Part shown: positions 17,976 through 63,207 of the stretch, in pieces
Layout of the letters: each line of letters begins with the position of its first letter
Numbering within the stretch: position 1 is the first letter of the stretch
Assembly (NCBI GenBank): GCA_965645245.1
Contig: OZ287070.1
Span: 2,914,001 to 2,978,000 of the forward strand
Reading direction: 5' to 3'
DNA length: 64,000 bases
From: Massalongia carnosa
Taxonomy: Eukaryota
Notes under the pieces: model-generated
What the model saw: only the letters and a program-made list of their open reading frames with translations
Database searches by the model: none
Told to the model about the DNA's origin: nothing
Made by a program: the position numbers and the translations under genes

Positions 17976-19057
17976 GGCCGGCGGGACGATCCCCGCGGCG
18001 ACGGCCGGGACCGACCTTCGAATTGAAGGTGCCCCATTTTCCCGCAGTTCCAGCAATCCTTATCCGACCGATTTCCTTTTGGTCTCGTAGGGGGCGGGGC
18101 TTCTTGATCTTGCTGATCTTCCTGATCATCCAGCTTTCTTTTGTTTGATTAGTGGTTCGGATTAATCACGGGTGCCTGTGGAGCGTCAGCGGGTCCATCT
18201 TCTTCAGGTTTGGGGGTTGAGGAAGATTGATTGTTTCGATTTTGATTCCGGCTTTTATTGAAAGTCTTCTTCCATCCATCGGGTTTTGGCTCAACCCTTT
18301 CCGCAATCCTCACCGCCTCGACCAGTTCCGCCCTGGTCGTCCCCTGACTACCCGCCCGGATCACAGCCGTCTTCAAGTAGTCGTGCACGCTGTGTAGGAG
18401 GTTGGAATGCTTCTGCATTTCCGTGGGGGGTTCGGGGAGTTGAGCTTCTAGGCTTTCCAGATATGTGACAAAATCGGACACGGTCTGCCCCTGGAATTGG
18501 CGCAATTTCTTCAGTTGTCCCCCCAGATCCATCAAGCGTAGATGCTTCGGTTTGAGCTTTTCCTGGAGGAAGTCAGCAAAGATTTTCCAGGTGAGCTCAC
18601 CTTCCGCCGCCTTCGTCGTCGCTTCCTTCTCACGGTGCCAATCGTCGGCAGGGGCTCCGGATAGATAGTTCTCGGCGTAGAGGACCTGTGCCGAGGGCGA
18701 TTCGTATGTGACTGGCTTCTGCAGAAAAGTTCTCTTGCAGTCACGTAGGAATGTGTCAAACGCCCGCTGATTGTCGCCGGCGTAGGTCGTCGGGTCTACG
18801 GAACGAAGAGACCTTTCCAGGGCCAGCGGGTCGACGGGTTTGGTTCGATCCGTGAGAGTGGGGAAGCCGGCGGCCTTTTCCTTCTTCAGGTCCTCCAGCG
18901 TTTTGGCTAGGTGCGCCTGCTTCCGTTCAGCCTCAATGGCCTCAACTTCTCGCTGCATGTCTGCCATGGTGGCGGAAATTAGGGTCTCGTCCGGGTTAGG
19001 TGTCGGGTTCGCCCCGGAAGCGGTGGACGAAGACATTTGCGATCTAGTTAATACCAT
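17954..19057 (-). pseudogene. gag: Gag of element D with premature TAA at 18149..18151
   Basis: Frame continues past the stop into CWNCGKMGHLQFEG (knuckle with last Cys lost), then GGGAAAA and TAG at 17954..17956. Confidence 0.85.
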
Positions 19058-22307: not shown

Positions 22308-22332
22308 TCCTTGATCAAAATCGCGATCAAGG
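22295..22332 (+). promoter_or_regulatory. -1 ribosomal frameshift signal (G GGA AAA plus stem CCTTGATC/GATCAAGG)
   Basis: X XXY YYZ heptamer just before the gag stop; -1 frame is open and continuous with pol. Confidence 0.8.
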
Positions 22333-22375
22333 GCGTACAAATAAGGAGGTTGTTAGTGAGAATAGTGACACTGAA

Positions 22376-30100: not shown

Positions 30101-31813
30101 GAATCTTCGATGCTATAGCCTGTACGTTTCAGAGTTTTTGTCCGTCTTGGTTGGGTTAAGTGCGGGTGTTGACTCAATCTCGATTTCCATATTGTTATGT
30201 GTTGTTGGACATGTTAAACCCGCGCCGCGCGGCTTTAACGCCTCTGATGAAGACGAGAGTGATGCAATATCAACTTTGCTTGGAAAGGCAATGTCATGAT
30301 GCATGGACGCGGTTAATGCGAATTCATCGAGATCCTTTGCTATTTTCTCGACGATATATACTCCCCCTCGCTGCCGTGCCTCCATGATCTCCTTGCCTTG
30401 CTTGTCATGCATCTTCAGCCCGTGCTGATCGAAACTTCCGATGAGGCCCTTCTCGCACATCCGCCTTCCAGACAAGAGATTAACCCCTAGCTTGGGGACA
30501 TAAAGGACAGAAGAAAGAAATCCCAGATTTCCGTGCCCATCCTTGATCACGCACGTACCGCGATGACATGCTCTCAATTCTCCCCCGCCGACCTTTATTC
30601 TTCTTTCTCTAATCTTTGTCAGAGGTCCGCTAAAGAGCTGAAGCTTGTCAGTCATGTGGGATGATGCGCCAGAGTCAGCTACCCATTTTGATCTGGGAAT
30701 CTTACAGACTGCTTCTCTGGAGAGGGCCGCAGTTTCCTCGAGATCATCTAGATCATCGTCATTGTCGCCTGATGAGAAGCTATCGTTCTCGTCCTCTTCT
30801 TCTGACTCGCCAGCGAGATAGCTCCGATGGCGCTTGACGGATGATTTGCCTTTATTGACCTCTTTCTTCTTCTTCGCGAGGCTCCTGACGTGGCTGCGAG
30901 TGCTTTCCAAGAATTCGCACTCTTTGGTCCAGTGGCCGACTTCTCCACAGATTAAGCATCCCTTTTGCGAGTTGTCCTTGATTTTCGTTTCTCTCTTTGC
31001 ACTTGAGGACCTTTCGTGCCGTCTGGATCGCTCCTGCCTGGAGTTGTTGAATGTGCTTTGACTTCTGGATGGGTTGAGAGGCCGTCGCTGCTCTCTTCGC
31101 TGTTCTTTCTGCTTTGCGAGCAAGGCTAAATCTGCTTTCGCCTGTGTTAGCTGAATTTCTTTGTCTTCCAACCTTTTTATGCCAATTTCGGCATCTACTC
31201 CCCCAATTGCATCAATTCCGTCCCTAATGACCGCGTACTCGGCTGGGAGAGATTGTAAGAGTAATTGGAATAGTTGCCGAGTGGGAAATGCGTCTCGAAG
31301 TGTGGGTGTGGCCATGACGACCTTGTCTCTCAACAACAAAAGTTCCCCCCATGCTTCCTGAACGGTGGTGTTCTCTTTCATTTTATATGACACCAGCTCT
31401 TGAAGGTAATGTCTTCCTGAAGTGGGAAGGATGCTGTTGTACTTGCTTAACAGCGAGGTCCACTTTTCCGCCGCTGTCTTCATCACTCTTACGCGTTCTT
31501 GATCGAATTGGCTTAAGCAGATGGTTATAAGATAGCATGCTTTAGCGTTGTCCTTTCTCCATCTTTCCGAATCGATAATTGGGGTTTCCCGGGTGAGGGG
31601 TGTGTCTGATTTATCTATTCCTTTTCCATCAAGGCTTAATTTGTCCATTCGCTGCTGAAGGTACGAGGAATTGGGCTGTGGCTCGCTTATTGTATGAAAG
31701 ATGCCTTCCGCTTCGAAATGCATTTCGGCCAGCTCGAACCATCTTTGATAGTTCTCCCTTGTCAGAACGGGCAAGGGTCTTCTTTTCGCTAGATCGTCTG
31801 CGATTGTTGTCAT
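27140..31813 (-). pseudogene. Copia C gag-pol polyprotein with a single nonsense codon (W to TAG, 30113..30115)
   Basis: ORFs 30113..31813 and 27140..29908 are in frame; YRL*HRRFAHLG matches the WHxRxxH motif; CLICGEVGHWTKEC, WVADSGAS, QNGVAER, HVDD, IADGLTK. Confidence 0.92.
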
Positions 31814-31852
31814 TTTTGATATTTGATTGTGCTTGTTGGATCCGTCGTATCA

Positions 31853-36357: not shown

Positions 36358-37847
36358 ACGATGAAGTTCAACTCATCAGATTGTCTTGAAAAAGGATGTC
36401 TTATACGAGGGATAACTTGTATCGAATTCGCTGTGGGAAGCATGGTTAAGAATAGGATCGAGCCTAAGGAAGACATCGAAATTCTTCCAGTCAACGCAAA
36501 ACACTTCTTTCGAATGGCCGGAAAGAAGGATCACGACGGCTATCTATGGATTCCTCGAGAAACAAAGAAGGCCTTCTGCGCAACTACCACCGGAGCAGTG
36601 ATATCAGGAGATTACGACAAGTTCATGAAGGGAAAACCGGAATACACCCGAGAGGAGTTGTTGAAGAGAGTCCCAGCAGCTTATCACAACGTAATAGATG
36701 TTTTCATGAAGCACAAGGCAGATGAACTGCCTGAACATCGGAAGGGAGATCATCAGATAAACCTCGAGGCAGGAAAAGAAGCTCCGTACGTAAGGAACTT
36801 TAAACCCATGTCAGAACAAGAATTGGAAGCGGTTAAGAAATACATTGACGAGCATCTGGGAAAGGGCTTCATCTGTCCTAGTTCTTCAAGCGCAGCAGCC
36901 CCGTTCTTCTAGTTAGAAAACCAGGGGGTGGTCTAAGATTCTGCGGGAATTATAGAGCCTTGAACTCCATCACGATCAAGAACAGATATCCAATACCGTT
37001 GATAAATGAAATATTGGGAAAACTATCACAGGCCAAGAAGTTCACGAAACTCGATGTGATTACAGCGTTCAATCGTATGAGAATGAAAGAAGGTCACGAG
37101 TGGCTCACGGCTTTCAATACTAGATATGGTCAGTCGAATATCTGGTGATGCCATTCGGCCTTTGCAACGCTCCAGGAACTTTTCAAACTTTCATCAACGA
37201 CACAGTCAGAGAATACTTAGACGTTTTCTGCACGGCGTATTTGGACGACGTCCTAATTTACAGTGAAAACGAAGAAGAGCATTCCGAACAGGTGCTAAAA
37301 GTCCTAACTCGATTGAAAGACAAAGGACTGCAAGTGGACATAGACAAATGCGAATTCTCTGTGACGGAGGTAAAGTATCTTGGATTGATAGTCACCACCG
37401 ATGGAATAAAAATGGACTCGTAGAAAGTCGAGGCTATTCTGAAATGGGAGATCCCAGGCTCCGTAAAAGACGTGCAAGCATTTTTAGGCTTTGCGAATTT
37501 TAATCGACGATTTATATCGAGATTTTCGCAACGGACGAGATCGTTAACAGAGTTAACAAAGGGCGAACAAATAATGACGAAATCAGGAAAGAAACGAACC
37601 AAGTATAATTCGTTCGTCTAGTCTGAACATTGTCAAAAGGTCTTCGAAGATTTAAAAAGGGAATCAATACCGGGACACCCCTTTTCACTACCTTGACACC
37701 CCATTTCACTACATTAACACCCCCCAAGTAAGCTAACCAAATCGGGCTGTTTATCCGTTCCGGAGCTGCAACTTCGAAAATTTCTGCACTCATATCTGTA
37801 TGCATTCCATTCGTCATTGCATGCACATTAACCAATCAGCTATCAAT

Positions 37848-39954
37848 ATGAATCTTGCCCCTCCCACCCACATGCTGAACGAAACATATGGATCGCTCAA
37901 TCTTCTTCTTGTCGCCATGCAAAAACACGCAGGCCCTGAGGGGTATGCGGTCTGCCAGCTTCGCACCAAAAAGTGTGCGACCACTGGATTGATAGACACA
38001 TGTTATATTTGTTGCGACCGAGGACGAATGGACCGTCAGCCTCGAGGACAGAAACGCTTACATGGAACCTCCAGGACCATTGACTGTCCTTTCTCTGTAG
38101 TGGTCAAGTCTAAAGACGATGAATGGATAGTTCGCGATATTCGAAATCCAGGCCACAATCACTCTGCTACAGTGGAAGGCTCTCATCCATCGCTCAGAAA
38201 ACTTGCTATCACCCCAGCTATAGCTGATGAAATTGTGCGCGCAACGAAGGTGCAAATGAAACCGAGTCAAATCCTTTCGTCTCATCGGCTCGGTCAGACT
38301 GACGATATAAATGACAATAATCCTCTTTTCAAACGACAAGATATTTACAATGCGAAGGCGGAAATTCGACACAAGGCACTAGGACGACTGACTCCCATTC
38401 AGGCGTTGATGCAGGAGTTAATTCGGCCTCATTGGTATGTACGGAGAAGATGCAATTTTTTACATACTAAATCGCAGTAGGAATTCGTTTTATCTCAAAG
38501 ACAATCTCGATCGCATAACACATCTTTATTTCAGCAAAGATTCCTGTCAAAGCACCCTGATGACCAACCCCGACGTGTTAATCATGGACTGCACCTATAA
38601 AACCAACAGATACAAATTACCATTGATATCAACAATGGGAACAACGGCCCTAAACACCTCATTTTATGTGGGGTTTGCCTTTCTTCGTCAGGAACCTAAA
38701 GAGGACTATGTTTGGTTTCTTCAACAATTAAAAACCCTTTATCGAATGCTGAATATTTCCTATCCAAAGGTAGTAGTCACCGATCGAGACATTGGCCTCA
38801 TGGCCGCTATTTACAGTGTGTTTCCTGACACACGTCATTTGTTATGCTTGTGGCATATTCACAGGAATGTTCAGGAGCATTGGAAACCTGTTTTTAGACA
38901 TAGTGCTCATTCCGACGATGACTGGATGGCCTTCGAAAGCATGTGGCATGCGGTGGTTTATTCAAAGACTGAAGAGGAATATGAGGTCAATTGGGACGCT
39001 CTGAATGATGCTTATTCACATGATCATTCAGCGGAAGTGCAGTATCTGGTAGACACATGGCTAGCCCCATATAAACGAAAATTCGTCAAGGCATTCGTCG
39101 ACAAAGTTCTTCATTTCGACAATATTGCTACCCCTAGGATGGAGGGGGGCCATGCTGTCTTGAAACATCAGTTGGGATTTTCTACCGGTGATCTCAAAAC
39201 GGTGGTTGACAACATTGATTTGTTACTAAAGAATCAGCAACAAGAGTACGTGATAAAACTGGATGAGGCTAAAATGCGCTTTCCTACCTGACTACGAAGA
39301 CCTCTTTACAGCGATGTAAGGGCTTATATCACGCCTTTTGCATTGTTGAAGGTGCATAGTCAGTACGAACGTCTTTTGGATCAAACGACCCCTCTCTCAT
39401 TATGCACCGGGGCATTTCGAGCAACAATGGGCTACCATATGCTCATGAAATCCAGGAAAGTTGATAAACTGAAGGAAATAGCCCTGAAAACGTACTAATT
39501 CTATTGCAATTAGGTTCGACTTTCTGGCCCGGCCCCCAATGTGCTTCAGCGCGACGACATTCACATTAAATGGTGGTTTCAGCGCCCCCTTGATCGGGCT
39601 TATTATCGCCACGAATCACCACCTCCAAGTGTCATCGATCCTTTGCTATTGGTGCGCGACCCCGAGGTAGTAGCCCGACCCCGAGGGCGTCCGTCAATCG
39701 CGATGCGTTTACAATCGGTAAGAGCTCAACGGGAGGCTGATAACTCTACCCAACGGGAGTTATCAGGGTTCGAACATGTCGAGGAGGTGTTGAATGGGCC
39801 TCCGAGGCGAGGGTGGGGGCGAGGGCGGGGTCGAGGACGAGGGCGAGGGCGAGGGCGAGGGCGAGGACGGGGCAGAGGGCAGTCACAAGGTGAAGGGGTG
39901 GCCTCCGGTGAAGCTATTCAATCGATTGAAGTAGATGGAGTGGGTTTGCTCTAG
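37848..39954 (+). pseudogene. MULE-1 transposase (intron-containing, premature stop at 39289..39291)
   Basis: FAR1-like N-terminus (CDRG...CPF...HNH), MDCTYKTNRY, VTDRD, LLCLWH, RMEGGH; RG-repeat tail. Confidence 0.85.
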
Positions 39955-39999: not shown

Positions 40000-42614
40000 G
40001 GGAACGGATAACAGGACACCACTTTGGTTAGATAAACACCACCTCCGGTTAGATAAACACCACCTCCGGTTAGGTAAACACCGCTAGCCCAGGTAGGGTA
40101 GATTCCTCGGTCCCGCCCGCCTTCTTCCCATTTTAGGTCTAGCAGTCCACATCCCAACATTGACACCTCAAGAAAAAATTCAATTCAGCTTTCAACCATC
40201 GATTGCTAGACATTGGATTTGTCGATTGGCACTGTCTTCATGAATCTCACCCTTTATTTGAAGCTTAGTAATGCAAAGCAGTTGATTGGAGCCGCATTCG
40301 CTGCATCCCCGCCAATTCCATCTGCTGCATCCCCGCCAATCCCGTCTCCCCTTCCTCGACTAGCTCTGCCTCGACTAGCCCTAGCCCTAGCTCGGCCAGT
40401 CCTTATGTTTGTCTCAGCTCTTTCACCAATCCCCCCTCCCCCTCCTCTCCCTCCCCCTCGTCCTCGCCCTCGCCCTCGCCCCCGACGTCCTACCCTGCCT
40501 GGTGTAGTATTGGCTCGATGAATAGCTCGTTCCACCTCCGGAGCTATTGCATCAGCTGTTTCCATTTCAACCTGTTCGAATTGAGATGGTAATCGATGAG
40601 TGGAATTGTCAAATGCCTCCGCTCGTCTGTTTTCCGCTCCCTGAGGGCGACCACGAGGTCGGGCTATCTCCGGTTCCCTCACTAGAAGAAGAGGATTAAT
40701 CAAAGCAATCGGAGGGGCGCGCTTTTCCAACCTTGAACTGTTGTTAGTAGCTGATCGCTGACCATCGATCAGATGACAATAACCTACTTCCAATGCGGGT
40801 GCACATCTTCCAATTTCAGACTTCCTTCATTCTCGAATAATCGTTGCTGAATCAGATGACTACAAGGCAAGCCGGTGATGGTAGTGAAGACGTTGGTACA
40901 AGCTGGAATAACAGTCGGTCTTCCTGTTAATAACTCGTATTGGTGTAGAATCTTTTTCAGGGCATAGGGACTGATAAATGCTCTCAGTTGCTGAAAGATA
41001 ACTTTGCGAAGATGAAGTGGAAAACGTGTTCTGGCTTCTTCAAAAGCAATCAGATGATCATGATACTGATTTGTTAGTAGCAGATTAATGCCGTCAACTA
41101 CCAGCTTCAAATCTCCGGTCGATGATCCTAATTGCCGTTTTAATACTGCATGTGCGCCTTCCCCTCGCGACGTTACCGTTGTCTCAAAATGCAGCACCTT
41201 GTTGGTGTAGCATGCCACGAAGCGATCGCGATGATTATCAATGTAGGTGGACTTCAAATATCGAATACAATCTTCATGAGAAGTCATATAGGTAGCAGAA
41301 AACTGCTCCCATAGCTTCCAAAATTGAGGCTCGGTTGCTGCATAGATCACTGATTTCCAATCTGACAAAAAGATCTTCCATTCCTCATTGTCGAAAGATT
41401 TTTTGCACTTTGTCAACACATTCTGATTGATGTGCCAGATGCATAGCAAATGATTGATATTTGGAAAGACTATGGAAGATGCCAACATTAATCCTTTCTC
41501 CATGTCGGACACGAGAATAATCGAATCAGGAAGTTCCAATCGAGAATACACCTCCTTCAATTGCTGTAAAGCCCAGATGTAGTCCTCTGCTGTCTCCGTG
41601 ATCAGAAAGCAAAAGGCGACATAAAAGGTAGTATGTAGCGCGGTTTGTCCGCTGATGACGAGAAGAGGCATTTTGTATCGATTGGTCTTGTACGTGCAAT
41701 CCATAATGAGAACTTCATGATTATCTATCAGAAGAGTTTGGGAACTGCCCTTGATGAAGAAGAGATGCGTAATCTGCTGATGAATGTCTTGTTGAAAGTT
41801 GTACACCCAATCCTTTTCGTCAAACTCACGAATCAATGCCTGAATAGGAGTCAATGGTCCCAAGACATCACGGCTCATCTGCGCCTTTAAGTTGTAGATG
41901 TCCCGAGGTTTAAACATCGGATTCACAATGATCTCGGCATTGGGATCATGAGGACTGAGATCTTTCACATCGGGAACACGCAGACTAGACAAAACCTTTG
42001 ACGCCGACGTTTGTAGTGTTAACTGTCTGGTAACGTCATCCTTTACACCGGTCAGAGCGATTTTTCTCAAGGCAGGATGAGAGCCAGCAAGACTGGACGG
42101 ATGTTTGTGTGTCCCATTTACCACCTCCAAAAACCACACCTCGTCGTCCATTTTGGCTGTCAGGGCAAATGGACAAGCAATTAGTCGACTGCTGGTGTGC
42201 CGACGATCCTGACCCTGCGGTTCTCTGACTTTTCCACCTCGGTCGCATTTTAACCAAGCTTTATTTCTCACTCCCAGCTTGGTTTTCTTGGTTCGAAGAA
42301 GCACCACGGCGTAGCCTTCGGGGGCGGCATGCTCATTGACTCTAAGCAACAGGTCTTCTAGTGATGCAAAGGATTGACTATCTTCGGGAGGTCGAAGCGG
42401 CATGACGACGTGGCGGCGGCAAGGTGCCTGCAGATCAAATGTGAAATATGAGTGCAAGGATGAGGTGCAGGTAGAATGTGGGAGTTTCAACCGCTAGACC
42501 TAAAAGGGGAAGAGGCGGGCGGGGCCGAGGAATCTACCCTACCTGGGCTAGCGGTGTTTACCTAACCGGAGGTGGTGTTTATCTAACCAAAGTGGTGTCC
42601 TGTTATCCGTTCCC
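40000..42614 (-). mobile_element. Mutator-like DNA transposon MULE-2, nested in MULE-1
   Basis: TIRs ~40000..40143 and ~42493..42614 starting GGGAACGGATAACAGGACACC; 8-bp TSD ATGAAATA. Confidence 0.95.
40254..42403 (-). CDS. MULE-2 transposase, apparently intact; predicted intron ~40738..40787
   Basis: MDCTYKTNRY, VSDME, LLCIWH, RGEGAH, CT..TGLPCSH SWIM-like motif; intron GTAGGT...TACTAAC...CAG joins exon 2 in frame. Confidence 0.88.
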
Positions 42615-45336: not shown

Positions 45337-46748
45337 TGTCAGGCCTTGCCATAGAGACTACGGAGAAGGATACGGAAAAGGGGCATCAGCATGGATGTAA
45401 TGGGCTACGAGACCAGTAAGCTTATCACGAGCGACACTGATCTCGAAAGGGGAAATGCTCAGCGTGAGAGGTGGAAGATAGCTACTACGTGCTAGTCTCC
45501 GAGAGTATATGTGATCCAAAGAACTAATGGATGTGGAAGTGCTTAGACCAAGAGATCTCGTCCGAGACCCAAACGTAGGTTGTTCATAGAATAAAGACTA
45601 ATTGCTAACGAATACTACAAGATTCGTTCTGATATTTATCCTACTCACCCCAAGCCTATAGCCTTGGGAGCCTTGGAACCTTAGGAGCCTTGCAAGCCTT
45701 GGGAGTCTTGCGAGCATTACAGCCTTGCAATCCACATCCGACTTTATCGCATTACATCCAACCATCCCTCAGGATCCATCCACGAACTCGGCGTTCGCTG
45801 GATCATCTAGTCAGCCTCGAGCAGCCTTCTAGACCTTCCCTTGCAAGGTAGAACAATTCTACCCCCGGCTAGATCCCTCACTACATGCCTCAGGCTATGT
45901 AGCTTCATTTCGCCGTCACCACTACCTAGTGATGGAAGGTTACCTCCGACTGAATACCTCGCTACACTGCGGACCTGCCTCTAGACACAAGGTCTAGACA
46001 ACGAGGTCATGTAGGTTCATTCAGCCGACATCACTACCAACGTAGTAATAAAGGTTGAAGCTGAAGTTTACACCAGGGAGCCTAGCTCAAGCTGCGTCCA
46101 GCGAGCCGTGCCTCCTGCTACCTCTCTTGAACCATCAAGAGATCCAGTAGCTCCGAGTAGGCCAGTAGATCGCATATAGAGTTCCTTGGCGTCTCCACAG
46201 GAGTCCGCCTTACACTCCATGGCAATCTACCACCACGGCCTCGACAGGTGTTTGATCTGTAAGTAGTCAAGAACGTGATAACAATAACTCCGAAGTTTCG
46301 GGGCAAGATGGCAGTGTGTCAGCCTCGACGGCTTATGCGACTTCGTACTACGGCATGGTCCACGCTAGTTAATCCCGCAACCGCCATAGGCGATCACGTA
46401 TCCCTCTAGCGCCATCCGTATTACAATGGACTCGGCCGCCGAACCCGGCCCGACCCTAATGGGCTGATTCCGCTGTCGGCCACATGCCGTCTCAGGGGGA
46501 CGGCTGGCGAGGGGGACGGCTGGAAACCCATGTCGGATGGCACTAACCGCCCAAAGGGGCCGGGAGCCATTTGGACCAATCAGATAGCTGGGGGCTATCC
46601 GATAAGGGAGTCTTAGGGGGAGACACGTCTGTAGAATAAAGAGGTCGATGCCCACCTTATTCTAAGGGCATAGATCAATAACATACATTATTGAGACCCC
46701 CCCTTCACGTGACCAACACGCCCTCTGAGTAGAAGCATACGTCTTACA
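45337..46748 (+). mobile_element. Solo LTR of family D, interrupted by solo LTR F1
   Basis: Reverse-complement match to 12654..13030; TSD CGTGT. Confidence 0.92.
45396..46425. mobile_element. Solo LTR F1 (1030 bp)
   Basis: TGTAAT...ATTACA ends, TSD ATGGA; second copy inverted at 50836..51855. Confidence 0.9.
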
Positions 46749-47080
46749 CGTGTCAAAATCGTTCGCTATTCCTAATTTACGATATCATAACATTGATACA
46801 GAAATACGCGACTGTTCGATCCAACAATGAAGATTGTGATTTATTATACAGTCGACTGCAAAAGGTTGGTCGCGACCCTGAATTTGGGACCACACATCAA
46901 ATATTTATGCGAAAATGGCAAAATGCCGGCAAAAATCTGAAAACTACCCTCACCGCCTACATGCCAATGAAATCGTACTACTGGTCAGTATTGAAGCAAT
47001 TTGTAGATTAGTATATGTAGATGCCATTCCCCGTCTTTTTTCCCTCCCCCCTCTGCCATTCCCCATTTTTTATCTCAGAT

Positions 47081-49250
47081 ATGAAAATTCGTGAACCGAG
47101 AGCAAAAAGATCAAATTCCGACCCCCCCCCGGCTGGAAAAGAGCCTTTCAAAGGTAAGAGAATCAAACTGACTTTGGTCGGGCCAAGAGCCAGAGCCATT
47201 GTCGCCGCCGGCATCGATGAAGCCTCTCCGGAATCGACGTCGGCCCCTCCCAAGCCAAAGCCTCCCCTCAAGTCAAAGCCCCCCTTCAAGCCAAAGGCCC
47301 CCCTCAAGCCAAAGGCCCCTCCTAAGCCAAAGGTCCCTCCCAAGCCAAAGGCCCCTCCCAAGTCAAAGGTCCAGCCTCAGCAGTCAAAGACTTTCGAATC
47401 GAATTATTATAGTCCCCTTGTCATTACGGAGGATTCCTCCGACGACTGGACGGATGAAGACGAGAAGCAGAGGTGGCAGGGTCAGTGGAGAAAGGGGGAA
47501 CGCGATGAAAACTGTAGATGCCGAAGATGATGCCGAAGATGATGCCGAAGATAATTCCGAAGATGATGCCGAAGATGATGTCGAAGATCTCAATGTGCCT
47601 AGTAACTGGATTGTCAGTAAGAAGTCTAGAAAACCAAGAAGAAAGGAACCCTCCCGTTTATCCCCTTCGCCACTGCCTCCGACGGTAATCAAATATCTAC
47701 TAAATGTGAAGATGTCGTATGAGAAGCACGTCGTTTTCGAGACGGTGATTCCATACGAAGACAATTCAACTACGTCGAAAAGATTCTTTTTGAGAAGCTA
47801 CACCGGGGACATGAGTTTGAAAGCCGAGACGTATGCGAATTCTAAAATGTATGCTTGTCATTTGGTTGATATCAAAGCGACCGTGTTATGGAATGGAATC
47901 AAACCGCATGAAAAATCAGCTCTCATGTTGATCGAATCCTGGCAGCCCATTGAGGAGGTTCTAATTCATTTAGAAGACAGCAGCATTCGAAAGAAAAGCT
48001 TCGCGGTTGATCTTATTTTCAACTTCAGTCGTACCAAAGATGGCGTCATTCCTCCCGATGATCCTATTGCTGCTGCCACAGCTGTCGCCACCAAGAAATT
48101 GGGAACCGCGACCATGAAGCTGCAAAAAGAGATGGAGGAACGAGCCATGTTGCAAGGCATGACGGCCGAAAGAATGTCCGAATTGCAAAGTCTGCATCTC
48201 TGTGAAAAACGCGCATGTAGGAATTTCGGACAGTACTGTTGGAATGATGAGACGAAGAATCAGCATTATCCTCTCAACAGTGCTCATTTCGTGACCTGGA
48301 ATAAAGCACTAGATGATGGAATTTCAGGCGTTGATTCTCGAACACCTCCACCGAAGATCAGAGAGAATTTATTCTCCCTGAATAAAGGTAAGAAAAAGAC
48401 TGAAACCTCGTCTCAGGAAATGCCCTTTGGAGGTGGGCATTCCATTTATCAACATCCCATGTATCAACACCACTCGTACCAAAACCCCCACTCGACATTT
48501 CCCCCCTCGTCATTGGCATTCCCCTCGACATTTCCCTCGGCATTCCCCTCGGCATTTCCTCACTCGGCATTTCCCCCCTCGGCATTTTATCCTTCTCAGT
48601 ATGCTCCTTCTACATTACCTGACTCGAGACGAGCCCGTGAGGAAACGCCGTTGGATTGGAGAGATTCGAGATCATCCAGAAGCAGTCGAAGCGTGAGTCG
48701 ATTTCTCCCTCTCCCCTCCGTCGCCCGCAGCAGTCCAGTGGAAGAAGATCTGGAAGACTATGTCAGTTGGCTCGTTCAAATGAAGCCTCATTTGAAAGGA
48801 GTGCTCACCAACGCCTGCGATCGATTGATGGAAGGTGGGTACGATCTGATGACCGTTCAATCCTTGAAAGGCATCGAGCATCAGACGTTCTGGCAGGAAC
48901 TAGGAATTCCTCCGGGAATCGGGATTCAACTGGCGCGAGACGTCAGTAAATTTGGAAGAGAAATGTCTCGGCAAATGCCTTTGCAAATGCCTTTGCAAAT
49001 GTCTCGACAAATGTCTCGACAGATATCTCAGCAAATGCCCCCGCCTCCCCCTCGGCGTCAACGCCATTTACCGACATCGCAAATGGCCACTCAGGCGGTC
49101 ACTCAGGCAGTCACTCGGGTGGATAAGGGGATGGAGGATGGGGAGGTGGACGGGGGCGGGGAGGTAGGATCTGGAGTGAGAGATACAATTGAGGAAGATG
49201 AGACGCATAGTCTAGAATACGATTATGCCGAAGATGAGGATGAGGATTAG
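47081..49250 (+). CDS. Uncharacterised cargo protein of the Tc1 element (frame change near 47480..47520: short intron or frameshift)
   Basis: Pro/Lys hexapeptide repeats, acidic DDAE repeats, C-x4-C-x-N-x4-CW-x7-H motif, Pro/Ser/Phe-rich region, SAM-like WQELGIPPGIGIQL segment. Confidence 0.7.
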
Positions 49251-49265
49251 ATACTATGTATCTAA

Positions 49266-50310
49266 TCAGATTGAAATGGTGGGATACTGAATGCCAGCCA
49301 ATCTAAATAAATTTCCCGGGTCTCCCATTCTCAGATCTTTGACTGCATCCCGAAGAAATTGTCCGAATCCCCCATACCCCTCCGTGTACGAAAGACTCAT
49401 TTCTCCATTCCGTCGAATCCATGCCTTTAGCAATGCAAACAACGTTTCAATTGGATTGAAATCTGGAGAATAAGGAGGTAGTCGTGCCAAGGTGACGTTG
49501 GCTGTCTCGCACATCTGAATAAGCTCCTGATTCCAATGAATGCTGGCATTATCTAGTACTAAAACAGATCTAGGACCTCCATTGGCAGTCGTCTGAGGAA
49601 GAACCTGATTTCGAACGAAGTCGTTGAAAATTTCGGCAGTTATGGAGCCCTGATGCACCTCCCAAGCTATATATCCATCGACGGTAAATGCAGGAAGAAT
49701 GCTCCATCTCTTTGACCTTTTCAAATCCTGAATCATGATTGGAGGGACGCCTGCCTGAGCCCATCCGTATCGTCGGTCACCTAGTCAGAAAGTCAGAAAA
49801 ATGACGAAGATGGGATGAAAGATGAGATAGGAAATAACCGGTTCTTTCGCAAGCTGCACTTTCGTCCAAAAAGATCAATTGCTCTGCAGTCCATTCTCCG
49901 AGTCTCTGCATCCATCCATCTCGAAGGCCTTGATTTCTTTGAGCTGCTTGTTTGATCACCTTCTTTCGATTCCAACCAAGCCTTTTTAGGGCACGACCAA
50001 CGGTGGTCTCATCTGCAGAGATCTGAAATTCGTCCCAAATGAACCAGCACATTTCGTCCAGATAGGCATGCGGACGTTGCTCCAGATATTTCAGAAGTTC
50101 AATCTCATGAAATTGACTGAGTTTACGAGGGCGATGTCCAATTGACAATTGAGGTAGAACCACATCTCCAAAATGAGTCCAATTACGTCTCATTCGTTGA
50201 ATCTGTCTGATGCCAACACCAGTGACAGATGCAATTGTCTTATTGCTGTCACCTCGTACAAAACGAAGCGTGATTGTCTCACGAAGGGTCTCACTGAGAG
50301 GGGGGGGCAT
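49266..50310 (-). CDS. Tc1/IS630-family transposase; predicted intron 49781..49838
   Basis: N-terminal HTH-like region, IFLDESA, VLDNASIH and YSPDFNPIE with 34 residues between D and E; splicing gives ERTGDRRYGW in frame. Confidence 0.9.
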
Positions 50311-50835
50311 TTTGGGAAAATGGCAGAGGAGAGAGGGAAAAAAGACGGGGAATGGCATCTACATATACTAATCTACAAGTCGCTTCAATACTGACCAGTA
50401 GTACGACTTCATTGGCATGTAGGCGGTGAGGGTAGTTATTCGGATTTTTGCCGGCATTTTGCCATTTTCGCGTAAATATTTGATGTGTGGTCCCAAATTC
50501 AGGGTCGCGACCAACCTTTTGCAGTCGACTGTACATTGAAAGATATAAATATAATGATATTTCTTTTGCAAATATCACAAATAATCGTCATTCATCGTAT
50601 CACACTCAAACTTAGACAGCCTATGTAACTTATTTTTATCAGAAATCAATTTATAAATAAAACTCGACATTATTCACAATGTCTTTTGAAATCTGTTCTT
50701 TTTAACAAACGACTTTCAGCAGTTCAAAAAAAGCTCAACTACCCCTATCATCATTTTACGGCAACTCTCGTCCCCCAAACAACAGACCCGAGGACTTGAC
50801 CGCTTCGAAGATGATAACTGGAAAGACTTCTCAGG

Positions 50836-51855
50836 TGTAATACGGATGGCGCTAGAAGGATACGTGATCGCCTACGGCGGTTGCGGGATTAACTAGCATG
50901 AGCCAGGCCGTAGTACTTAGTCGCACAGCCGTCGAGGTTGACACGACGCCACCTTGCCACACAACTCCGAATCCTACGTTCTAGACTGCTTACAGATCAA
51001 ACACCTGTCGAGGCCGTGGTGGTAGATTGCCATGGAGTAAGGCGAACTCCTGTGGAGAAGCCGTGAACTCTATATGGAATCTGCTGGCCTACTCGGAGCT
51101 ACTCGATCTCTTGATGGATCAAGAGTTGTAGCAGGAGGCACGGCTAGCTGGACGCAGCTTGAGCTCGGCCTCCCCGGTGTAAACTTCAGCTTTCACCTTT
51201 ATTGCTAATTTGGTAGTGATATCGGCTGAGTGAACCTACATGACCTTGTGGTCTAGACCTTGTGTCTAGTGGCAGGTCCGCAGTGTAGATAGAGATTCAG
51301 TCGGAGGTAACCTTCCATCGCTACGTTGGTAGTGGTGACGGCGAAATGAAGCTACATAGCCTCGGCGTCTAGACTTTATGTTTAGAGGCAGGCTAGCAAT
51401 GTAGTGAGGGATCTAGCCGGAGGTAGAAGTGTTCTACCTTGCAAGGGAAGGTCTAGAAGGCTGCTCGAGGCTGACTAGATGATCCAGCGAACACCGAGTT
51501 CGTAGATGGATCCTGAGGGATTGGTTAGATGTAAGGCGATAAGGTCAGAAGTGGGTTGCAAGGCTCTTAAGGTTCCAAGGCTCCCAAGGCTATAGGCTTG
51601 GGGTGAGTAGGATAAATACCAGAACGAATCCTGTAGTATTCGTTAGCAATTAGTCTTTATTCTATGAACAACGTACGTTTGGGTCTCGGACGAGATCTCT
51701 TGGTCTAAGCACTTCCACATCCATTAGTTCTTTGGATCACGTATACTCTCGGAGACCAGCTCGTAGTAGCTATCTTCCTCCTCTCACGCTGAGCATTTCC
51801 CCTTTCGAGATCAGTATCGCTCGTGATAAGCTTACTGGTCTCGTAGCCCATTACA
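50836..51855. mobile_element. Solo LTR F2, diverged inverted copy of F1
   Basis: Reverse-complement similarity to 45396..46425 along its length; flanks TCAGG / ATTGG do not match. Confidence 0.88.
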
Positions 51856-56112: not shown

Positions 56113-57520
56113 TGATATAGGGTATCATGTCACTTAGAAAATGTATTCAATTGCAAAATAGACAGCAAGTTTATTATGTTATCAAAAATTTATCGTCCGG
56201 GTCATCAAGTGTGACATTCTCCGCTAATTTCGCAAGTCGTAAGTTTTAGAAAATTTAAGAAAAGTTTTCAATTTTTCGATTTCAATCCTGAAATTAAATA
56301 GATAATTTTGTATTGCATACGTGGTTTTAAATTTACAACCTTTTACGAATTGTATCGATCGTAAAAACTTGAAACCGGTTCCAAAATCTCAGTTCTGAGA
56401 TGGCACGGTCTCGTTATATTGATGACCTCGAGAGACTTTTTCTTTGAATTTATCTTTATACACATAAGAGTGGCTAGGTTGGTCTGCCTAGTATTTACGT
56501 ATTGTAGCGTAACAAGCATCCCTTTCACCATCCTAATGTTCACATAGGAGACTATTGCTCTCGTCTCATCGCTAGTCGCTGTGGCTTGTTCCAGCTTCCA
56601 GATTGCTTGAACAGTAACATCTGGAAATATTATAACATACTGTGAGATTCTGAGGATCAAAGACGCATCATTAAGATCCAAAGCCTAGCCTATTCTGTAT
56701 CGTGCGATAGCTCCAGATTCTACATCATAGAGATTCGGATGTCGTGTAGATGCAGATGGGTAGTGCCGGTGTTCATAAATATGTCTGAGTATAAGATTGT
56801 GTTAGGATCTAGATCTACTGTCATCTAGTAATGAATGGAGTTTACGTACTAGATCGGGTTGAATAAGTGTTGATAAATTAATTGATACATGGATGGATTA
56901 TTGTTCTCAGGAAAAGATGAGAAAATTCTATCGAGTCTACCCGCTGAGTCCCTCGGTAAAACCATTTACCCGAAATTACTTGGTTGACAGATTGATTGCT
57001 AGATGGGTTCTCATTATGTTAAGTCACAGTATGACTTTGGTGTTACTATGGGAGAAGGATTGGGAGGTATGTGAGGAGACATTGTGGGTTTTCGATGAAT
57101 ATGTCTGGCAGTAAGGTGTCTCTTGAGGTAATATTCTTGGGATGTGCTTGTTGAAGGAGAGGAGGTTGCGGTTGTCAGAAGTTCGGCTTGAGAAGGTGGG
57201 TCGGATAAGAGTAAGTCTGGATTCGTAAGGCCTGAAGGGGCAGGGACTTATGAGGAGATCGGACCAATAGATGTAACACTATCAAGCATTTCTAGGAACT
57301 CCTCCTGAGTTTGTGCAAGGCGAAGAATGGTCACTGATTCCAAAATCGAGGATGTTACCTGAGTAACGGTAGATGAAAAGACACTTCCGTTTTTTGGTTA
57401 ACTCGCACTGGGTACAAACAAACTACGTTACTCTTCATTACGGTGCTTCTACAATCTATTATGAGAAGAGTTTAGTGATAGAAATTCTATGATTCGGAGT
57501 AGAGGAACATACCTTGATCT

Positions 57521-60500
57521 CTAACTCTTCAAGAAGCATCGCAAGTACATGTCTTCGGCTTCTTTCATCTTGCCTTGATTCTTGTACAGATTTCCCAGAT
57601 TGTTGACTGTATCGATTGTCGATGTGTGCTCAGGACCCCAGGCCTTTTCCTTTCCTGTCAATGCTCGCAAGTACATGTCTTCGGCTTCTTTCATCTTGCC
57701 TTGATCCGAGTACAGAAGTCCCAGATTGTTGACTGTATCGAGTGTCGATGTGTGCTCAGGACCCCAGGCCTTTTCCTTTCCTGTCAATGCTCGCAAGTAC
57801 ATGTCTTCGGCTTCTTTCATCTTGCCTTGATTCTTGTACAGAAGTCCCAGATTGTTGACTGTATCGAGTGTCGATGTGTGCTCAGGACCCCAGGCCTTTT
57901 CGTATCCTGTCAATGCTCGCAAGTACATGTCTTCGGCTTCTTTCATCTTGCCTTGATCCGAGTACAAAACTCCCAGATTGTTGACTGTATCGAGTGTCGA
58001 TGTGTGCTCAGGACCCCAGGCCTTTTCGTATCCTGTCAATGCTCGCAAGTATATGTCTTCGGCTTCTTTCATCTTGCCTTGATTCTTGTACAGAAGTCCC
58101 AGATTGTTGACTGTACCGAGTGTCGATGTGTGCTCAGGACCCCAGGCCTTTTCCTTTCCTGTCAATGCTCGCAAGTACATATCTTCGGCTTCTTTCATCT
58201 TGCCTTGATCCGAGTACAGAAGTCCCAGATTGTTGACTGTACCGAGTGTCGATGTGTGCTCCGGACCCCAGGCATTTTCGTATCCTGTCAATGCTCGCAA
58301 GTACATGTCTTCGGCTTCTTTCATCTTGCCTTGATTCTTGTACAGAAGTCCCAGATTGTTGACTGTATCGAGTGTCGATGTGTGCTCAGGACCCCAGGCC
58401 TTTTCGTATCCTGTCAATGCTCGCAAGTACATGTCTTCGGCTTCTTTCATCTTGCCTTGATTCTTGTACAGAAGTCCCAGATTGTTGACTGTACCGAGTG
58501 TCGATGTGTGCTCAGGACCCCAGGCCTTTTCGTATCCTGTCAATGCTCGCAAGTACATGTCTTCGGCTTCTTTCATCTTGCCTTGATCCGAATACAGATT
58601 TCCCAGATTGTTGACTGTATCGAGTGTCGATGTGTGCTCAGGACCCCAGGCCTTTTCGTATCCTGTCAATGCTCGCAAGTACATGTCTTCGGCTTCTTTC
58701 ATCTTGCCTTGATTCTTGTACAGAAGTCCCAGATTGTTGACTGTACCGAGTGTCGATGTGTGCTCAGGACCCCAGGCCTTTTCGTATCCTGTCAATGCTC
58801 GCAAGTACATGTCTTCGGCTTCTTTCATCTTGCCTTGATTCTTGTACAGAAGTCCCAGATTGTTGACTGTACCGAGTGTCGATGTGTGCTCAGGACCCCA
58901 GGCCTTTTCGTATCCTGTCAATGCTCGCAAGTACATGTCTTCGGCTTCTTTCATCTTGCCTTGATTCTTGTACAGAAGTCCCAGATTGTTGACTGTACCG
59001 AGTGTCGATGTGTGCTCAGGACCCCAGGCCTTTTCGTATCCTGTCAATGCTCGCAAGTACATGTCTTCGGCTTCTTTCATCTTGCCTTGATTCTTGTACA
59101 GAAGTCCCAGATTGTTGACTGTACCGAGTGTCGATGTGTGCTCAGGACCCCAGGCCTTTTCGTATCCTGTCAATGCTCGCAAGTACATGTCTTCGGCTTC
59201 TTTCATCTTGCCTTGATCCGAGTACAAAACTCCCAGATTGTTGACTGTATCGAGTGTCGATGTGTGCTCAGGACCCCAGGCCTTTTCCTTTCCTGTCAAT
59301 GCTCGCAAGTACATGTCTTCGGCTTCTTTCATCTTGCCTTGATCCGAGTACAGAAGTCCCAGATTGTTGACTGTATCGAGTGTCGATGTGTGCTCAGGAC
59401 CCCAGGCCTTTTCCTTTCCTGTCAATGCTCGCAAGTACATATCTTCGGCTTCTTTCATCTTGCCTTGATCCGAGTACAGAAGTCCCAGATTGTTGACTGT
59501 ACCGAGTGTCGATGTGTGCTCCGGACCCCAGGCATTTTCGTATCCTGTCAATGCTCGCAAGTACATGTCTTCGGCTTCTTTCATCTTGCCTTGATTCTTG
59601 TACAGAAGTCCCAGATTGTTGACTGTATCGAGTGTCGATGTATGCTCAGGACCCCAGGCCTTTTCCTTTCCTGTCAATGCTCGCAAGTACATGTCTTCGG
59701 CTTCTTTCATCTTGCCTTGATCCGAGTACAAAACTCCCAGATTGTTGACTGTATCGAGTGTCGATGTGTGCTCAGGACCCCAGGCCTTTTCCTTTCCTGT
59801 CAATGCTCGCAAGTACATGTCTTCGGCTTCTTTCATCTTGCCTTGATCCGAGTACAAAACTCCCAGATTGTTGACTGTATCGAGTGTCGATGTGTGCTCA
59901 GGACCCCAGGCCTTTTCGTATCCTGTCAATGCTCGCAAGTACATGTCTTCGGCTTCTTTCATCTTGCCTTGATCCGAGTACAGATTTCCCAGATTGTTGA
60001 CTGTATCGAGTGTCGATGTGTGCTCAGGACCCCAGGCCTTTTCCTTTCCTGTCAATGCTCGCAAGTACATGTCTTCGGCTTCTTTCATCTTGCCTTGATT
60101 CTTGTACAGAAGTCCCAGATTGTTGACTGTACCGAGTGTCGATGTGTGCTCAGGACCCCAGGCCTTTTCGTATCCTGTCAATGCTCGCAAGTACATGTCT
60201 TCGGCTTCTTTCATCTTGCCTTGATCCGAGTACAGAAGTCCCAGATTGTTGACTGTACCGAGTGTCGATGTGTGCTCAGGACCCCAGGCCTTTTCCTTTC
60301 CTGTCAATGCTCGCAAGTACATGTCTTCGGCTTCTTTCATCTTGCCTTGATCCGAGTACAGAAGTCCCAGATTGTTGACTGTATCGAGTGTCGATGTGTG
60401 CTCAGGACCCCAGGCCTTTTCGTATCCTGTCAATGCTCGCAAGTACATGTCTTCGGCTTCTTTCATCTTGCCTTGATTCTTGTACAGATTTCCCAGATTG

Positions 60501-63207
60501 TTGACTGTATCGAGTGTCGATGTGTGCTCAGGACCCCAGGCCTTTTCCTTTCCTGTCAATGCTCGCAAGTACATGTCTTCGGCTTCTTTCATCTTGCCTT
60601 GATCCGAGTACAGATTTCCCAGATTGTTGACTGTATCGAGTGTCGATGTGTGCTCAGGACCCCAGGCCTTTTCGTATCCTGTCAATGCTCGCAAGTACAT
60701 GTCTTCGGCTTCTTTCATCTTGCCTTGTTCGCTTGAAAAATCACCAATAGCATGATAGGAAAAATATAGTTTCCATCTCTCATTGCTTTCAATGTTTTGA
60801 GTTCTTTTCCCAATGCAGAAGTGAACACGGCTACAATGATCAAGCAGTCGTTTTCGATGCAGCCAGTTTGCTGAACTGTCAGTGGAATGACATGCCGAAC
60901 CGATTACAGAAACTGCTAAAGAAGCTATATCGTCCTTAGAGGTCCGACTCAAGTGAAAACACCAGTCATGTATAATTGGATGTATCGCATACGATGAGAT
61001 CTCATATCGTGTTTCTATCAAAGAGTAATCCAGCAGTATTTGAATCTTCTGTGTAAAGTCAAACTCCGTTTTCATGCTACATGAAAACCAGGTAGGTAAT
61101 GTCTCTTTGGGGACAATGCTTTCGTGAAGTACAGGCGTGAATAAAGAATACCATAAATCTGAGTGATCGAGATATGCAAACAGATCAAGCAACTTTGCAG
61201 CGCTCGCGTCATTGCGTCGCACATATTCGTAAGAAATGGTATACGTAGACAAAATGTTACGGGGATAATCTTTTAATCGCGTTATTTTGTTGTCGTGAAG
61301 CTTCTCCCAAGTCTCTTCATAGTATCGAATATAGTCGTTCACACTTGTAGCCGTTCCGTGAATATAGGAGCCTGCATGAGCAAGTGCAAGTGGGAGACCA
61401 CCCACTTTCTCGACGATCCTGTCAAGGCCTATATAATGCTTGCTTAGTGAATTGGACTAAGACTGTTGCTTGGTTTTCATTACCTTCGATTGATCGTCCT
61501 ATCCTGTATCGTAATACTTCTGCTCCTTGTAGATTGCTCATTCTCCCAAGCTGCCGGTCATGCCCATGTTGTCGCAGCTGTCGTAATCGGCTTGTGATTA
61601 AAATAGAGCCGTGATTGGCTTCTGGGGAAAATTCATCTACATCATATGATTGAGGATCATCTGCCTCACGCGAATTATCACGATCGATGTTATCGAAAAT
61701 GAGAAGCCATCGGTTGTTTTCGGGTTGATCGAACCAATTCAGAATATTTTTGATGATTTTATCTAGCTCTTCAGGGGATGTTTTGAAGGATCTTGTACAT
61801 AAATCGGGAACTTGATCTTTGGGCAATTTTCGACCAATCTGAGCAAGACTTTGACGTACACTTTCCTTACTATCGCCGTTTAGCCAAAAAATTGAACTGA
61901 AAATCTTCTGTGATATTTGAGCGAACTCGATTGCTAGCTGAGTCTTGCCGGAGCCGCCAAGTCCGTGCAAAACGAACACCTTCCGGCGAGTCTCACGAGT
62001 TGGCTTGGGGAAAAGGTTGTCCTTAAGGTCATTCATTTCCTGATCACGAGCTACGAATTTGGGTACACGGGGTAGGCCTTTCAAACTGAATGGCACTTTG
62101 TATGGACCAGAATCTATTCAAAGATTAAGTAAATCAAAGATTATCAAGGAAACATTAACGCACATTTTCGTGTGGAAAGATTATTTCCGCAGAGCTTCAT
62201 TTGTTTCATTATGCTTTCCAAAGCCACATAGCGGGTTGTGGCGGCCATAATCTTGTTCTTCTGTGCTCCATCTTCGAGTCCAATACTCTCAAGCCCATGA
62301 GAAACATTGAAACGAAAATAGCGATTCCCATCGTCGAGATCTGAATGTGCTCGATGGAAAGACTCCGCTGTTTTTTCTGTCTCTGTTGCAATGTCTTGCA
62401 ATGTTTTTGCAATCTCGAAGAGGCTTGAGCCATAAGAATCCAAGGATGGAACACCGGTACCGATAGATATCAGGCATTTAATGTTTCCCTCAAGCGCTTC
62501 ATCTGACCACACACTTTTGGCCTCGTTCCAAAGCTGTGCGACAGGATTGTTAGCCCCCACAGCCCCGTCGACAAATTCTTCTTCAAACTGGCCAATTCTG
62601 ATTGGATCAAAGAGGGATGATGCGGCAGATGTGGCTCGAGCTGCCTCCCAAATTCGTGTCTTATGGTACATATCTGAGGATCCTCGAGAAGGATACGATG
62701 TGAAAAGGACTGTGTCGGCAGTCTCTTTGCTCAGAGCGCATACAAATCTAGCCTTCGTTAATATCACTAGAATAGTACGTGAAAATGCAACTTCCAAAGC
62801 ACTGACACTTTGCACTGCTGATTCTCCGATCCTTTGAGGAGAGCATTTTCGCCTGCCTTGTCCTTCCGCTTTACGATTTCTCGAATCGACCGTTCCAGCT
62901 CTTCTGTGTCGAATCTCCCTTGTACGTGTCCGTTTATTGTGACACGATGCCACTTTTTTTGAAACACTTGATCGAACAATGCGACATAAGCATCGATACA
63001 TTCATCAATGTTCATCTCAAGACGACCCAGCATGATAGCAATCAATCCACCGGTACTTGTCCCTCCGATCATGTCGAAATACTCGCATGGCTTCGGCGGC
63101 GCATCCGGATTAATGATCTCCATCAGTCGCTTGAGGATTGCGAGTGACGATAGCCCTCGCACTCCACCTCCATCGAGAGATAATAGGCATAAGTCATTAT
63201 CTGGCAT
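57521..63207 (-). CDS. Fungal NLR: patatin-like phospholipase + NB-ARC + TPR array; predicted introns 62748..62806, 62114..62163, 61429..61483
   Basis: DGGGVRG, GTSTG nucleophile elbow, FVDGA; P-loop GLGGSGKT, Walker B LLIFDNID, GLPLAL; three GT-AG introns join four ORFs in frame. Confidence 0.93.
57537..60727 (-). repeat. Intragenic tandem array: 25 full 126-bp (42-aa) TPR units plus a partial unit
   Basis: Unit QGKMKEAEDMYLRALTG[Y/K]EKAWGPEHTSTL[D/G]TVNNLG[N/L/V]LY[SD/KN]. Confidence 0.97.

Follow-up and report, generated by a model that had tools for sequence, protein, structure and literature searches.

A Tc1-like transposon of the lichen-forming ascomycete Massalongia carnosa with a conserved second gene, possibly encoding a nuclear helper protein

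Among transposons, Tc1/mariner elements are the textbook example of minimal design: a single protein makes them self-sufficient, and it is because of this simplicity that they are used as gene-transfer tools. In the present study, we analysed a stretch of 64,000 nucleotides from Massalongia carnosa (assembly GCA_965645245.1, contig OZ287070.1, positions 2,914,001 to 2,978,000 of the forward strand), called the window below, and in it a 3,683-bp Tc1-type element at positions 46849-50531. Besides its transposase gene the element carries a second gene, which we call the cargo gene. Elements with more than one gene have been described before. In Pyrenophora tritici-repentis, a Tc1/Mariner element with a second open reading frame (ORF) occurs in 46 copies, and both coding regions are present in 31 of these (Manning et al. 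2013, PMC3538342); this transduplication element was also seen on a bacterial artificial chromosome of Alternaria alternata (PMC3538342). Mariner elements carrying Fanzor1, nuclease or methyltransferase genes were described by Bao and Jurka (2013, PMC3627910), and the TBE and Tec elements of ciliates are treated by Dupeyron et al. (2020, PMC7325037). Outside the superfamily, the Myb-like protein of Harbinger binds the ends of its element and is responsible for import of the transposase, and its divergence is much faster than that of the transposase (PMC9392472).

By its transposase, ends and target site the Massalongia element belongs to the Tc1/mariner superfamily; it departs from the one-gene layout. 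It shares with the Tc1-like DD34E elements (IS630-Tc1-mariner) the TA duplication, the inverted ends with CAGT-type termini, a DDE_3 domain with 34-residue spacing and an N-terminal helix-turn-helix (HTH). The canonical content of these elements is the transposase gene only, whereas here a gene for about 722 aa is added; membership was kept in spite of it since the superfamily is defined by the transposase. The element also differs in that its second gene is twice the size of the transposase gene, in its overall length of 3.7 kb, which is larger than usual, and in its 212/213-bp ends without an internal repeat of the terminal sequence. Its parts are as follows (+, forward strand; -, reverse strand; residues are numbered on P0001, the cargo protein that was modelled; pLDDT, predicted local distance difference test score).

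46847-46848, no strand: TA target-site duplication, left copy (sequence and empty site)
46849-47060, +: left terminal inverted repeat, 212 nt, beginning CAGTCGAC... (self-alignment of the window)
47081-49250, +: second ("cargo") gene, about 722 aa when intact, stop codon 49248-49250 (ORFs and translations)
47224-47390, +: 18-nt tandem repeats encoding a basic Pro/Lys repeat (PKxPPK) in the N-terminal region (sequence repeats)
47496-47497, +: G-run site of the 1-nt difference that breaks the frame (contigs of runs X1, X2 and X3)
47506-47600, +: 12-nt repeats encoding an acidic tract of DAED repeats (sequence repeats)
47676-48035, +: predicted β-grasp (PB1/ubiquitin-like) domain, residues 58-177 (AlphaFold2, pLDDT about 82-97)
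48102-48389, +: predicted long helix and C-x4-C-x6-C-x8-H module (C233, C238, C245, H254, W265) (conservation, pLDDT 88)
48735-48980, +: predicted C-terminal five-helix SAM/helix-hairpin-helix-like domain after a near-invariant SSP motif (pLDDT 92-98)
49251-49265, no strand: 15-bp spacer separating the convergent stop codons (sequence, ORFs)
49266-49780, -: transposase exon 2 with stop codon, DDE_3 catalytic part, DNASIH...NPIE (coding 49780-49269)
49781-49838, -: transposase intron, 58 nt, GTTATT...CTGAC branch-like sites...CTGACTAG, ending in TAG (splice reconstruction)
49839-50310, -: transposase exon 1, HTH part and first catalytic D (splice reconstruction, Pfam)
50319-50531, -: right terminal inverted repeat, 213 nt (self-alignment of the window)
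50532-50533, no strand: TA target-site duplication, right copy (sequence and empty site)

The two inverted ends are 96.2% identical across 213 aligned columns, and the 30-nt terminus (CAGTCGACTGC...) occurs exactly twice in the 64-kb window, against 0 occurrences expected from 100 shuffles. Contigs of the runs X1 (n=1) and X2 (n=2) connect position 46846 straight to 50532. The sequence they omit, 3,685 nt, is the element and one TA, and the joint is the empty site that an inserting Tc1/mariner element should leave in other copies of the locus. The cargo ATG stands 20 nt from the inner edge of the left repeat and the transposase ATG 8 nt from that of the right one; with its parts only 20, 15 and 8 nt apart, the element holds no spare sequence. 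No second copy of the cargo or transposase gene was found elsewhere in the 64-kb window, and the terminal sequence was not found repeated inside the inverted ends, as it would be in a Sleeping-Beauty-like inverted repeat/direct repeat layout. The initial annotation of this locus, made from the sequence alone, had described a TA-flanked element with terminal repeats of about 210 bp, an apparently intact spliced DD34E transposase and a second gene of about 2.2 kb filling most of the element. All three statements agree with the present analysis: the TA stands on both sides of repeats of 212 and 213 bp with an empty site in X1 and X2, the second gene is the ORF at 47081-49250, and the transposase could be reconstructed as a complete product.

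The spliced transposase, with its single 58-nt intron, is a stop-free protein of 328 aa. The splice chosen was the only listed GT..AG option that yields ...DESAACERTGDRRYGW..., which agrees with the consensus DESAxNERTGDRKYGW of 72 relatives. Pfam DDE_3 (PF13358) matched at E 3.9e-27 (95.3 bits, cut-off 28.6) and HTH_33 at 25.9 bits (cut-off 25), while HTH_32 and HTH_23 stayed under their cut-offs. A hand count on the translation placed 34 residues between the D of DNASIH and the E of NPIE (DNASIH...SPDFNPIE), so the designation DD34E was correct, and the D, D and E fall in near-invariant columns of the 72 relatives. A search with exon 2 returned fungal relatives with 40-63% identity in the catalytic part (best 120 of 201). 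The profile scan of genome contigs with the transposase alignment found bacterial IS630 relatives only (77 loci, 25-36% identity), and at 0/77 of these loci was a cargo relative found nearby. The closest transposase relatives P0154, P0155 and P0187 (NCBI/JGI/ENA) showed a deviant residue composition (chi-square p<0.001 in the tree tool), and P0154, in which replacements by I, N, K, S and F are numerous, resembles an AT-shifted version of the window transposase. Such composition suggests repeat-induced point mutation (RIP) of sister copies.

The cargo gene opens with a strongly basic region, the first 138 aa holding 31 K+R and 27 P. The motifs reported earlier were all found in it, namely the PK-rich 18-nt repeats, the acidic 12-nt repeats, LCEKRACRNFGQYCWNDETKNQH and ELGIPPGIGIQL. 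In the window copy, the ORF lies in two frames, the break being an additional base at 47496/47497. At this point the X1, X2 and X3 contigs are all one base shorter, and P0038, the gene model of another copy, is continuous across it (...QGQWRKENAMKAVDAEDD...). The frame change near 47500 that the initial annotation had noticed is therefore one extra base of a G-run that other copies lack, and no intron. A 37-nt GT..AG intron (47481-47517) that restores the frame was rejected, as it is too short for a fungal intron and does not fit the shorter X1-X3 contigs or the continuous P0038. The extra G is either a mutation of this copy or an assembly error.

We found that the second ORF represents a true gene, which is conserved, occurs in multiple copies and forms an integral component of the element. 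Contig 2 of X1 (2,511 nt) corresponds to 47861-50362 and covers the 3' half of the cargo gene, the spacer, the whole transposase gene and the inner right end; contig 1 of the same run (800 nt) corresponds to 47017-47829, reaching from the inner part of the left end to within the cargo gene. The same inverted-end/cargo and cargo/transposase junctions are spanned by X2 and X3 contigs, and P0038 opens with a peptide encoded by left-end sequence before it continues into the cargo. The best run containing the element carries the label lichen metagenome. In Mb-scale assemblies, the cargo protein falls into two subfamilies, 96-99% and 51-56% identical to the window protein, with full-length and truncated members. 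Copies and fragments form clusters of 3, 6, 2, 8, 1, 12, 1 and 4 members, on Mb-scale contigs of at least 12 different lengths. The gene is thus not confined to this copy, which was the case that the initial annotation had set against its own proposal.

Selection across copies was also checked. Among the cargo ORF substitutions listed, 9/16 are synonymous and 7/16 nonsynonymous, a synonymous excess with binomial p 0.007 against an expectation of 25% and 0.047 against 33%; this count covers the differences listed, and 22 further differences over the whole stretch lie outside it. The three remaining indels of the ORF in other runs (12, 12 and 21 nt) are all in frame. Between the subfamilies, identity is 80% in the SAM-like domain, 64% in the Cys3His module and 54% in the β-grasp domain, against 30-48% in the linkers. 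Besides these copies, single contigs of X2 and X3 have loose ends at 49275 and 47827, respectively, beyond which the element gives way to unrelated sequence; these contigs may represent derivatives that were rearranged or deleted, or the second subfamily.

In addition, an exhaustive phmmer search recovered a wider family of cargo relatives (132 at E<=1e-3, 47 at E<=1e-10 and 5 at E<=1e-30), many of them 600-800 aa long and 22-33% identical. On the N-terminal side the members share a long basic region, a globular domain and the pattern W-x-C-x4-C-x-N-x4-C-x8-H...W, and on the C-terminal side a Pro-rich linker, SSPV and a domain with LGIxPGIGxxLA. No Pfam family was found at E<=0.01 in 25 of the 26 members scanned, the sole match being a fragment of DUF7924 in P0050. 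Organism names were obtained for 2 of the 22 clusters looked up, Brigantiaea leucoxantha and Puttea exsequens, both Lecanoromycetes. A profile search with the A2 family alignment gave 8 close matches only, swamped by low-complexity words, and the atlas search with cargo residues 55-300 returned unnamed clusters only. Two candidates were set aside as chance: the metagenome profile match L001 (44 aligned residues, 1 kept of 46 stretches), which other family proteins did not match, and a weak match to PF21584 (18.5 bits, cut-off 27). In a partial literature search, neither the cargo family nor any Tc1 element with two genes from lichen fungi was found described, and the lichen transposon papers checked give class counts only.

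Distant cargo relatives and related DD34E transposases appear to occur together on small contigs. Linkage was judged by equal contig size and same source, used together as a fingerprint in place of the DNA itself. The best transposase match, P0153 (63% identity in exon 2, 58% at full length), comes from ENA on a single contig of 4,066 bp, which shares size and source with the contig of the cargo relative P0018 (771 aa). The fourth match, P0156 (51% at full length), also from ENA, lies on a 10,484-bp contig that shares both with the contig of the cargo relative P0032 (806 aa), and for this size a match by chance is very unlikely. A quick maximum-likelihood tree built from 119 catalytic parts placed the window transposase, P0153 and P0156 in one 12-row clade (Shimodaira-Hasegawa-like approximate likelihood-ratio support 97). 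Size matches are enriched in this clade (2/11 against 2/108, Fisher p 0.04). Half of the short-contig cargo clusters (8/16) lie on contigs of 3.3-4.2 kb, the size of the element, as a collapsed repeat would give. When the three lineages are compared in pairs, the transposase shows 58/51/50% identity and the cargo 26/24/24%, a pattern that fits joint descent with a faster-evolving cargo. The expectation of the initial annotation that homologues sit beside DD34E transposases in other genomes is thereby supported indirectly, by two size- and source-matched pairs (4,066 and 10,484 bp).

The AlphaFold2 model of P0001, made with 147 sequences, was confident at residues 55-300 and 412-490 and indicated disorder elsewhere. 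The predicted β-grasp domain aligned with PB1 domains in VIA-align (4mjs_A: Z 7.2, root-mean-square deviation (rmsd) 3.1, 85/88 aligned; 2g4s_A: Z 6.6). Streptokinase, superantigen and ubiquitin-like β-grasps scored close to PB1, the best Foldseek matches were superantigen chains (E 4.5e-3), and Pfam PB1 did not match this domain at E<=10. The C-terminal domain is the most conserved part of the cargo, with 35% identity even to distant members beside the 80% between subfamilies. Its modelled bundle (residues 411-492) aligned with the tankyrase SAM domain 5jti_A (Z 6.0, rmsd 2.6, 61/63 aligned), and the SAM domains of SARM1, DGK-delta and EphA1 gave Z 5.1-5.9. A chain of a RAD51-paralogue complex, 8faz_C, reached Z 6.0 with rmsd 2.0, and RAD51-family N-terminal domains and NusA AR2 were level with SAM. 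No Pfam SAM family matched at E<=10, either with residues 405-500 alone or with the whole protein; SAM clusters at 0.80-0.83 in the atlas feature search are a lead only. The "SAM-like" label given earlier thus holds at the level of the fold, with Z about 6, and for no sequence family. The LGIPPGIGIQLARDV stretch, with the consensus LGIxPGIGxxLAxxV, fits what we take to be the helix-hairpin-helix (HhH) pattern, h-x-x-h-x-G-h-G-x-x-x-A-x-x-h. The sole Pfam trace in this direction was Cdd1 (E 0.19), a family that presumably contains an HhH. In the PDB sequence search, the best match was 1x4r at E 0.34 with the profile A2, and the C-terminal domain alone gave E 0.37.

The Cys3His module was modelled alone with a pLDDT of 88 as a long helix, two short hairpins and two helices, the two hairpins bearing the invariant or near-invariant C, C, C and H. 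No structural match to it was found (VIA-align best Z 4.6, Foldseek against PDB best E 1.5, BFVD best E 0.26), which does not prove that the fold is new.

The gene content of this element appears to be new, and the layout of a two-gene Tc1/mariner element is already precedented. The suggestion that it may define an undescribed two-component family was overstated, since Tc1/mariner elements with extra genes are in print. By Pfam, the cargo has no detectable domain in common with the extra genes of the TBE/Tec, Fanzor-type Mariner or Pyrenophora elements. The Pyrenophora element resembles ours in being a Tc1/Mariner of a fungus that holds a further ORF inside its inverted ends and was amplified as one piece, its two coding regions intact, and the P. 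tritici-repentis transposases P0170 and P0191 are among the relatives of the window transposase. Its ORF, however, is known by a PF08946 coiled-coil, which was found in 0/13 cargo members at E<=10, and its transposases fall outside the 12-row clade; the ORFs themselves are compared here by Pfam content. The Fanzor-type Mariner elements are likewise of the IS630-Tc1-mariner type with TA duplications and extra genes. Their passengers are enzymes, interchangeable between related elements and mostly single-copy in viruses or protists, whereas the cargo here appears stably tied to one transposase clade; no nuclease, TnpB-like RuvC or zinc-ribbon Pfam family was found in it or in 26 relatives. TBE/Tec elements share the DD34E-type transposase, several ORFs with one on the opposite strand, and long inverted ends. 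As compared by description, their ORFs number three, one of which encodes a zinc-finger protein in TBE or a site-specific recombinase in Tec, the Tec ends are about 700 bp long, and both are tied to ciliate genome rearrangement. With PIF/Harbinger, the likeness is in layout only: a single pair of inverted ends encloses two distinct genes, and the product of the second, which probably binds DNA or protein, diverges much faster than the transposase, but the transposase superfamily (DDE_3 here) and the target duplication are different, and no Myb/SANT domain was found in the cargo at Pfam E<=10. The requirement for the second protein is shown for Harbinger and guessed here.

With a probability of about one half, we read the locus as an autonomous-type Tc1-like (DD34E) transposon of a lichen-forming ascomycete whose second protein serves as an element-encoded nuclear helper. 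We consider it very probable that this is a genuine Tc1 element of two genes, the second being integral to it; that the cargo protein is a helper of transposition is a tentative proposal, which we hold with slightly more doubt than belief. The element inserted at a TA inside a transposon-rich region. In the proposed scheme, both genes would be transcribed inward from the same inverted-end sequence and hence be co-expressed, and the second gene would long have been associated with one transposase lineage. The helper is predicted to bind DNA or chromatin via its basic Pro/Lys repeats, Cys3His module and HhH-like C-terminal domain, and to self-associate via its PB1-like and SAM-like domains; the PDB entries matched by the cargo folds include PB1 and SAM filaments. 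It might act with the transposase by bridging the long inverted ends, by importing or recruiting the transposase, or by steering insertion. The model follows the Myb-like second protein of PIF/Harbinger, which works in this manner. A stronger version, an obligate two-protein Tc1 lineage in which the cargo would be expressed from the inverted-end promoter that also serves the transposase, polymerise via its PB1-like and SAM-like domains, bind DNA via an unseen Cys3His fold and the HhH-like domain, and be needed for end pairing or targeting, seems doubtful to us.

Several points weigh against a helper. Tc1/mariner transposases are known to work in vitro without element-encoded partners, and the transposase of this element has an HTH region of its own. 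The window copy of the cargo is itself frame-broken. The fold matches are middling, their Z of 6-7.2 falling within the "common" range of the tool, where Z <8 may mean a common arrangement, and the Pfam SAM, PB1 and HhH models gave no match at E<=10 with the whole cargo or its three separate domains; thus, only fold-level likeness can be claimed for SAM, PB1 and HhH. The linkage fingerprint consists of size and source, and about 0.45 chance matches are estimated in the dense 1-5 kb range. Two more size matches, at 2,471 bp (P0016/P0200) and 3,814 bp (P0289, P0293/P0203), pair different sources with transposases outside the clade and were not accepted as linkage for these reasons; a 3,813-3,817-bp series of Logan contigs suggests that this size is set by a repeat, so the 3,814-bp match may be real. 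Finally, the sole comparable fungal case in print was read as passenger-gene capture (PMC3538342).

The same reading could be given to the present cargo, as a host or foreign gene caught between inverted ends by transduplication and copied along with no transposition role. Mariner elements with interchangeable passenger genes are known (PMC3627910), and some cargo relatives lie on contigs of 356, 489 and 106 kb, known there from the protein alone. A passenger nevertheless seems unlikely to us, since a useless 2.2-kb gene is expected to be lost fast from a cut-and-paste element and its domains are instead conserved between subfamilies. The cargo also appears to have co-diverged with the transposase in three lineages, it starts just inside an inverted end as the transposase does, and no related single-copy host gene of a known family was found (25/26 members without Pfam family). 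Its fast divergence (24-26% identity against 50-58% for the transposase) would be expected in an arms race, and the cargo might accordingly serve counter-defence or self-regulation, acting on host RNA silencing, RIP or heterochromatin, or damping the transposase, with no cut-and-paste role. Its architecture is like that of a chromatin protein, with basic and acidic tracts, a zinc module, a disordered linker and the C-terminal SAM-like domain. Moreover, with stop codons 15 bp apart the 3' ends of the convergent transcripts would overlap, and double-stranded RNA formed in this way might enter RNA silencing, and the close transposase relatives P0154 and P0155 have AT-shifted residues suggestive of RIP. 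However, much of the fast divergence falls in disordered parts, and Pfam found no known silencing-suppressor or methylation-enzyme domain; we rate this explanation a little lower still than that of a passenger. The nested repeats that fill the region might lead one to think of chance juxtaposition, either of two nested unrelated elements or of a host gene trapped between solo inverted ends, in this copy only. This is highly improbable, as P0038 and contigs from three other runs show the same junctions, the entire 3,683 bp is delimited by a single TA duplication and a single clean empty site, and no spare sequence separates the parts.

If the second gene has been retained through deep divergence, even Tc1/mariner elements can evolve a dedicated partner. 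Such a lineage would also add an uncharacterised protein family with about 130 detectable members and a confidently modelled zinc module without a match among solved structures. It would further give a testable handle on transposon persistence in lichen-forming fungi, in which mobile elements are little studied. If the cargo is a mere passenger, the element would still provide a second clean case, among fungi, of a Tc1 element amplifying a gene.

The surroundings of the element form a transposon island, and its immediate flanks are nested repeats. The domain scan of the window gave the following features around it.

3220-8972, -: Gypsy-type retrotransposon ORFs (1,338 and 583 aa) with protease, reverse transcriptase, RNase H and integrase
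9305-12622, +: Copia-type ORFs (RVT_2, rve, gag)
13896-19099: third Gypsy-type retrotransposon, with chromodomain
20556-26308, +: Gypsy-type retrotransposon, ORF lengths identical to those of the copy at 3220-8972
27140-31849, -: Copia-type ORFs (RVT_2, rve, gag)
37737-39291, +: MULE transposase ORF (PF10551)
40784-42493, -: MULE transposase ORF (PF10551)
57521-63001, -: large gene, patatin-like in its N-terminal part, in which more than 20 TPR repeats occur

The layout of the patatin/TPR gene is like that of fungal NLR proteins. Its repeat region is open on the opposite strand too (1,072 aa, 57518-60736), probably as a by-product of the repeats. An inverted pair of a 1-kb repeat (45396-46425 and 50836-51855), 85% identical, brackets the element and about 730 bp of flank. 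In the aligned runs, the depth over this repeat was 10-100x that of its surroundings, and many contigs break at 46425/46426 and 50835/50836; hence, it is a very high-copy element. The gene model P0275 is a cargo copy elsewhere that runs into the same 1-kb repeat. The inserted 1-kb repeat also splits here an LTR-like (long terminal repeat) repeat of about 380 bp (45337-45395 and 46426-46749), which is 97-99% identical to the sequences at 12654-13030 and 19122-19499, beside the retrotransposon ORFs.

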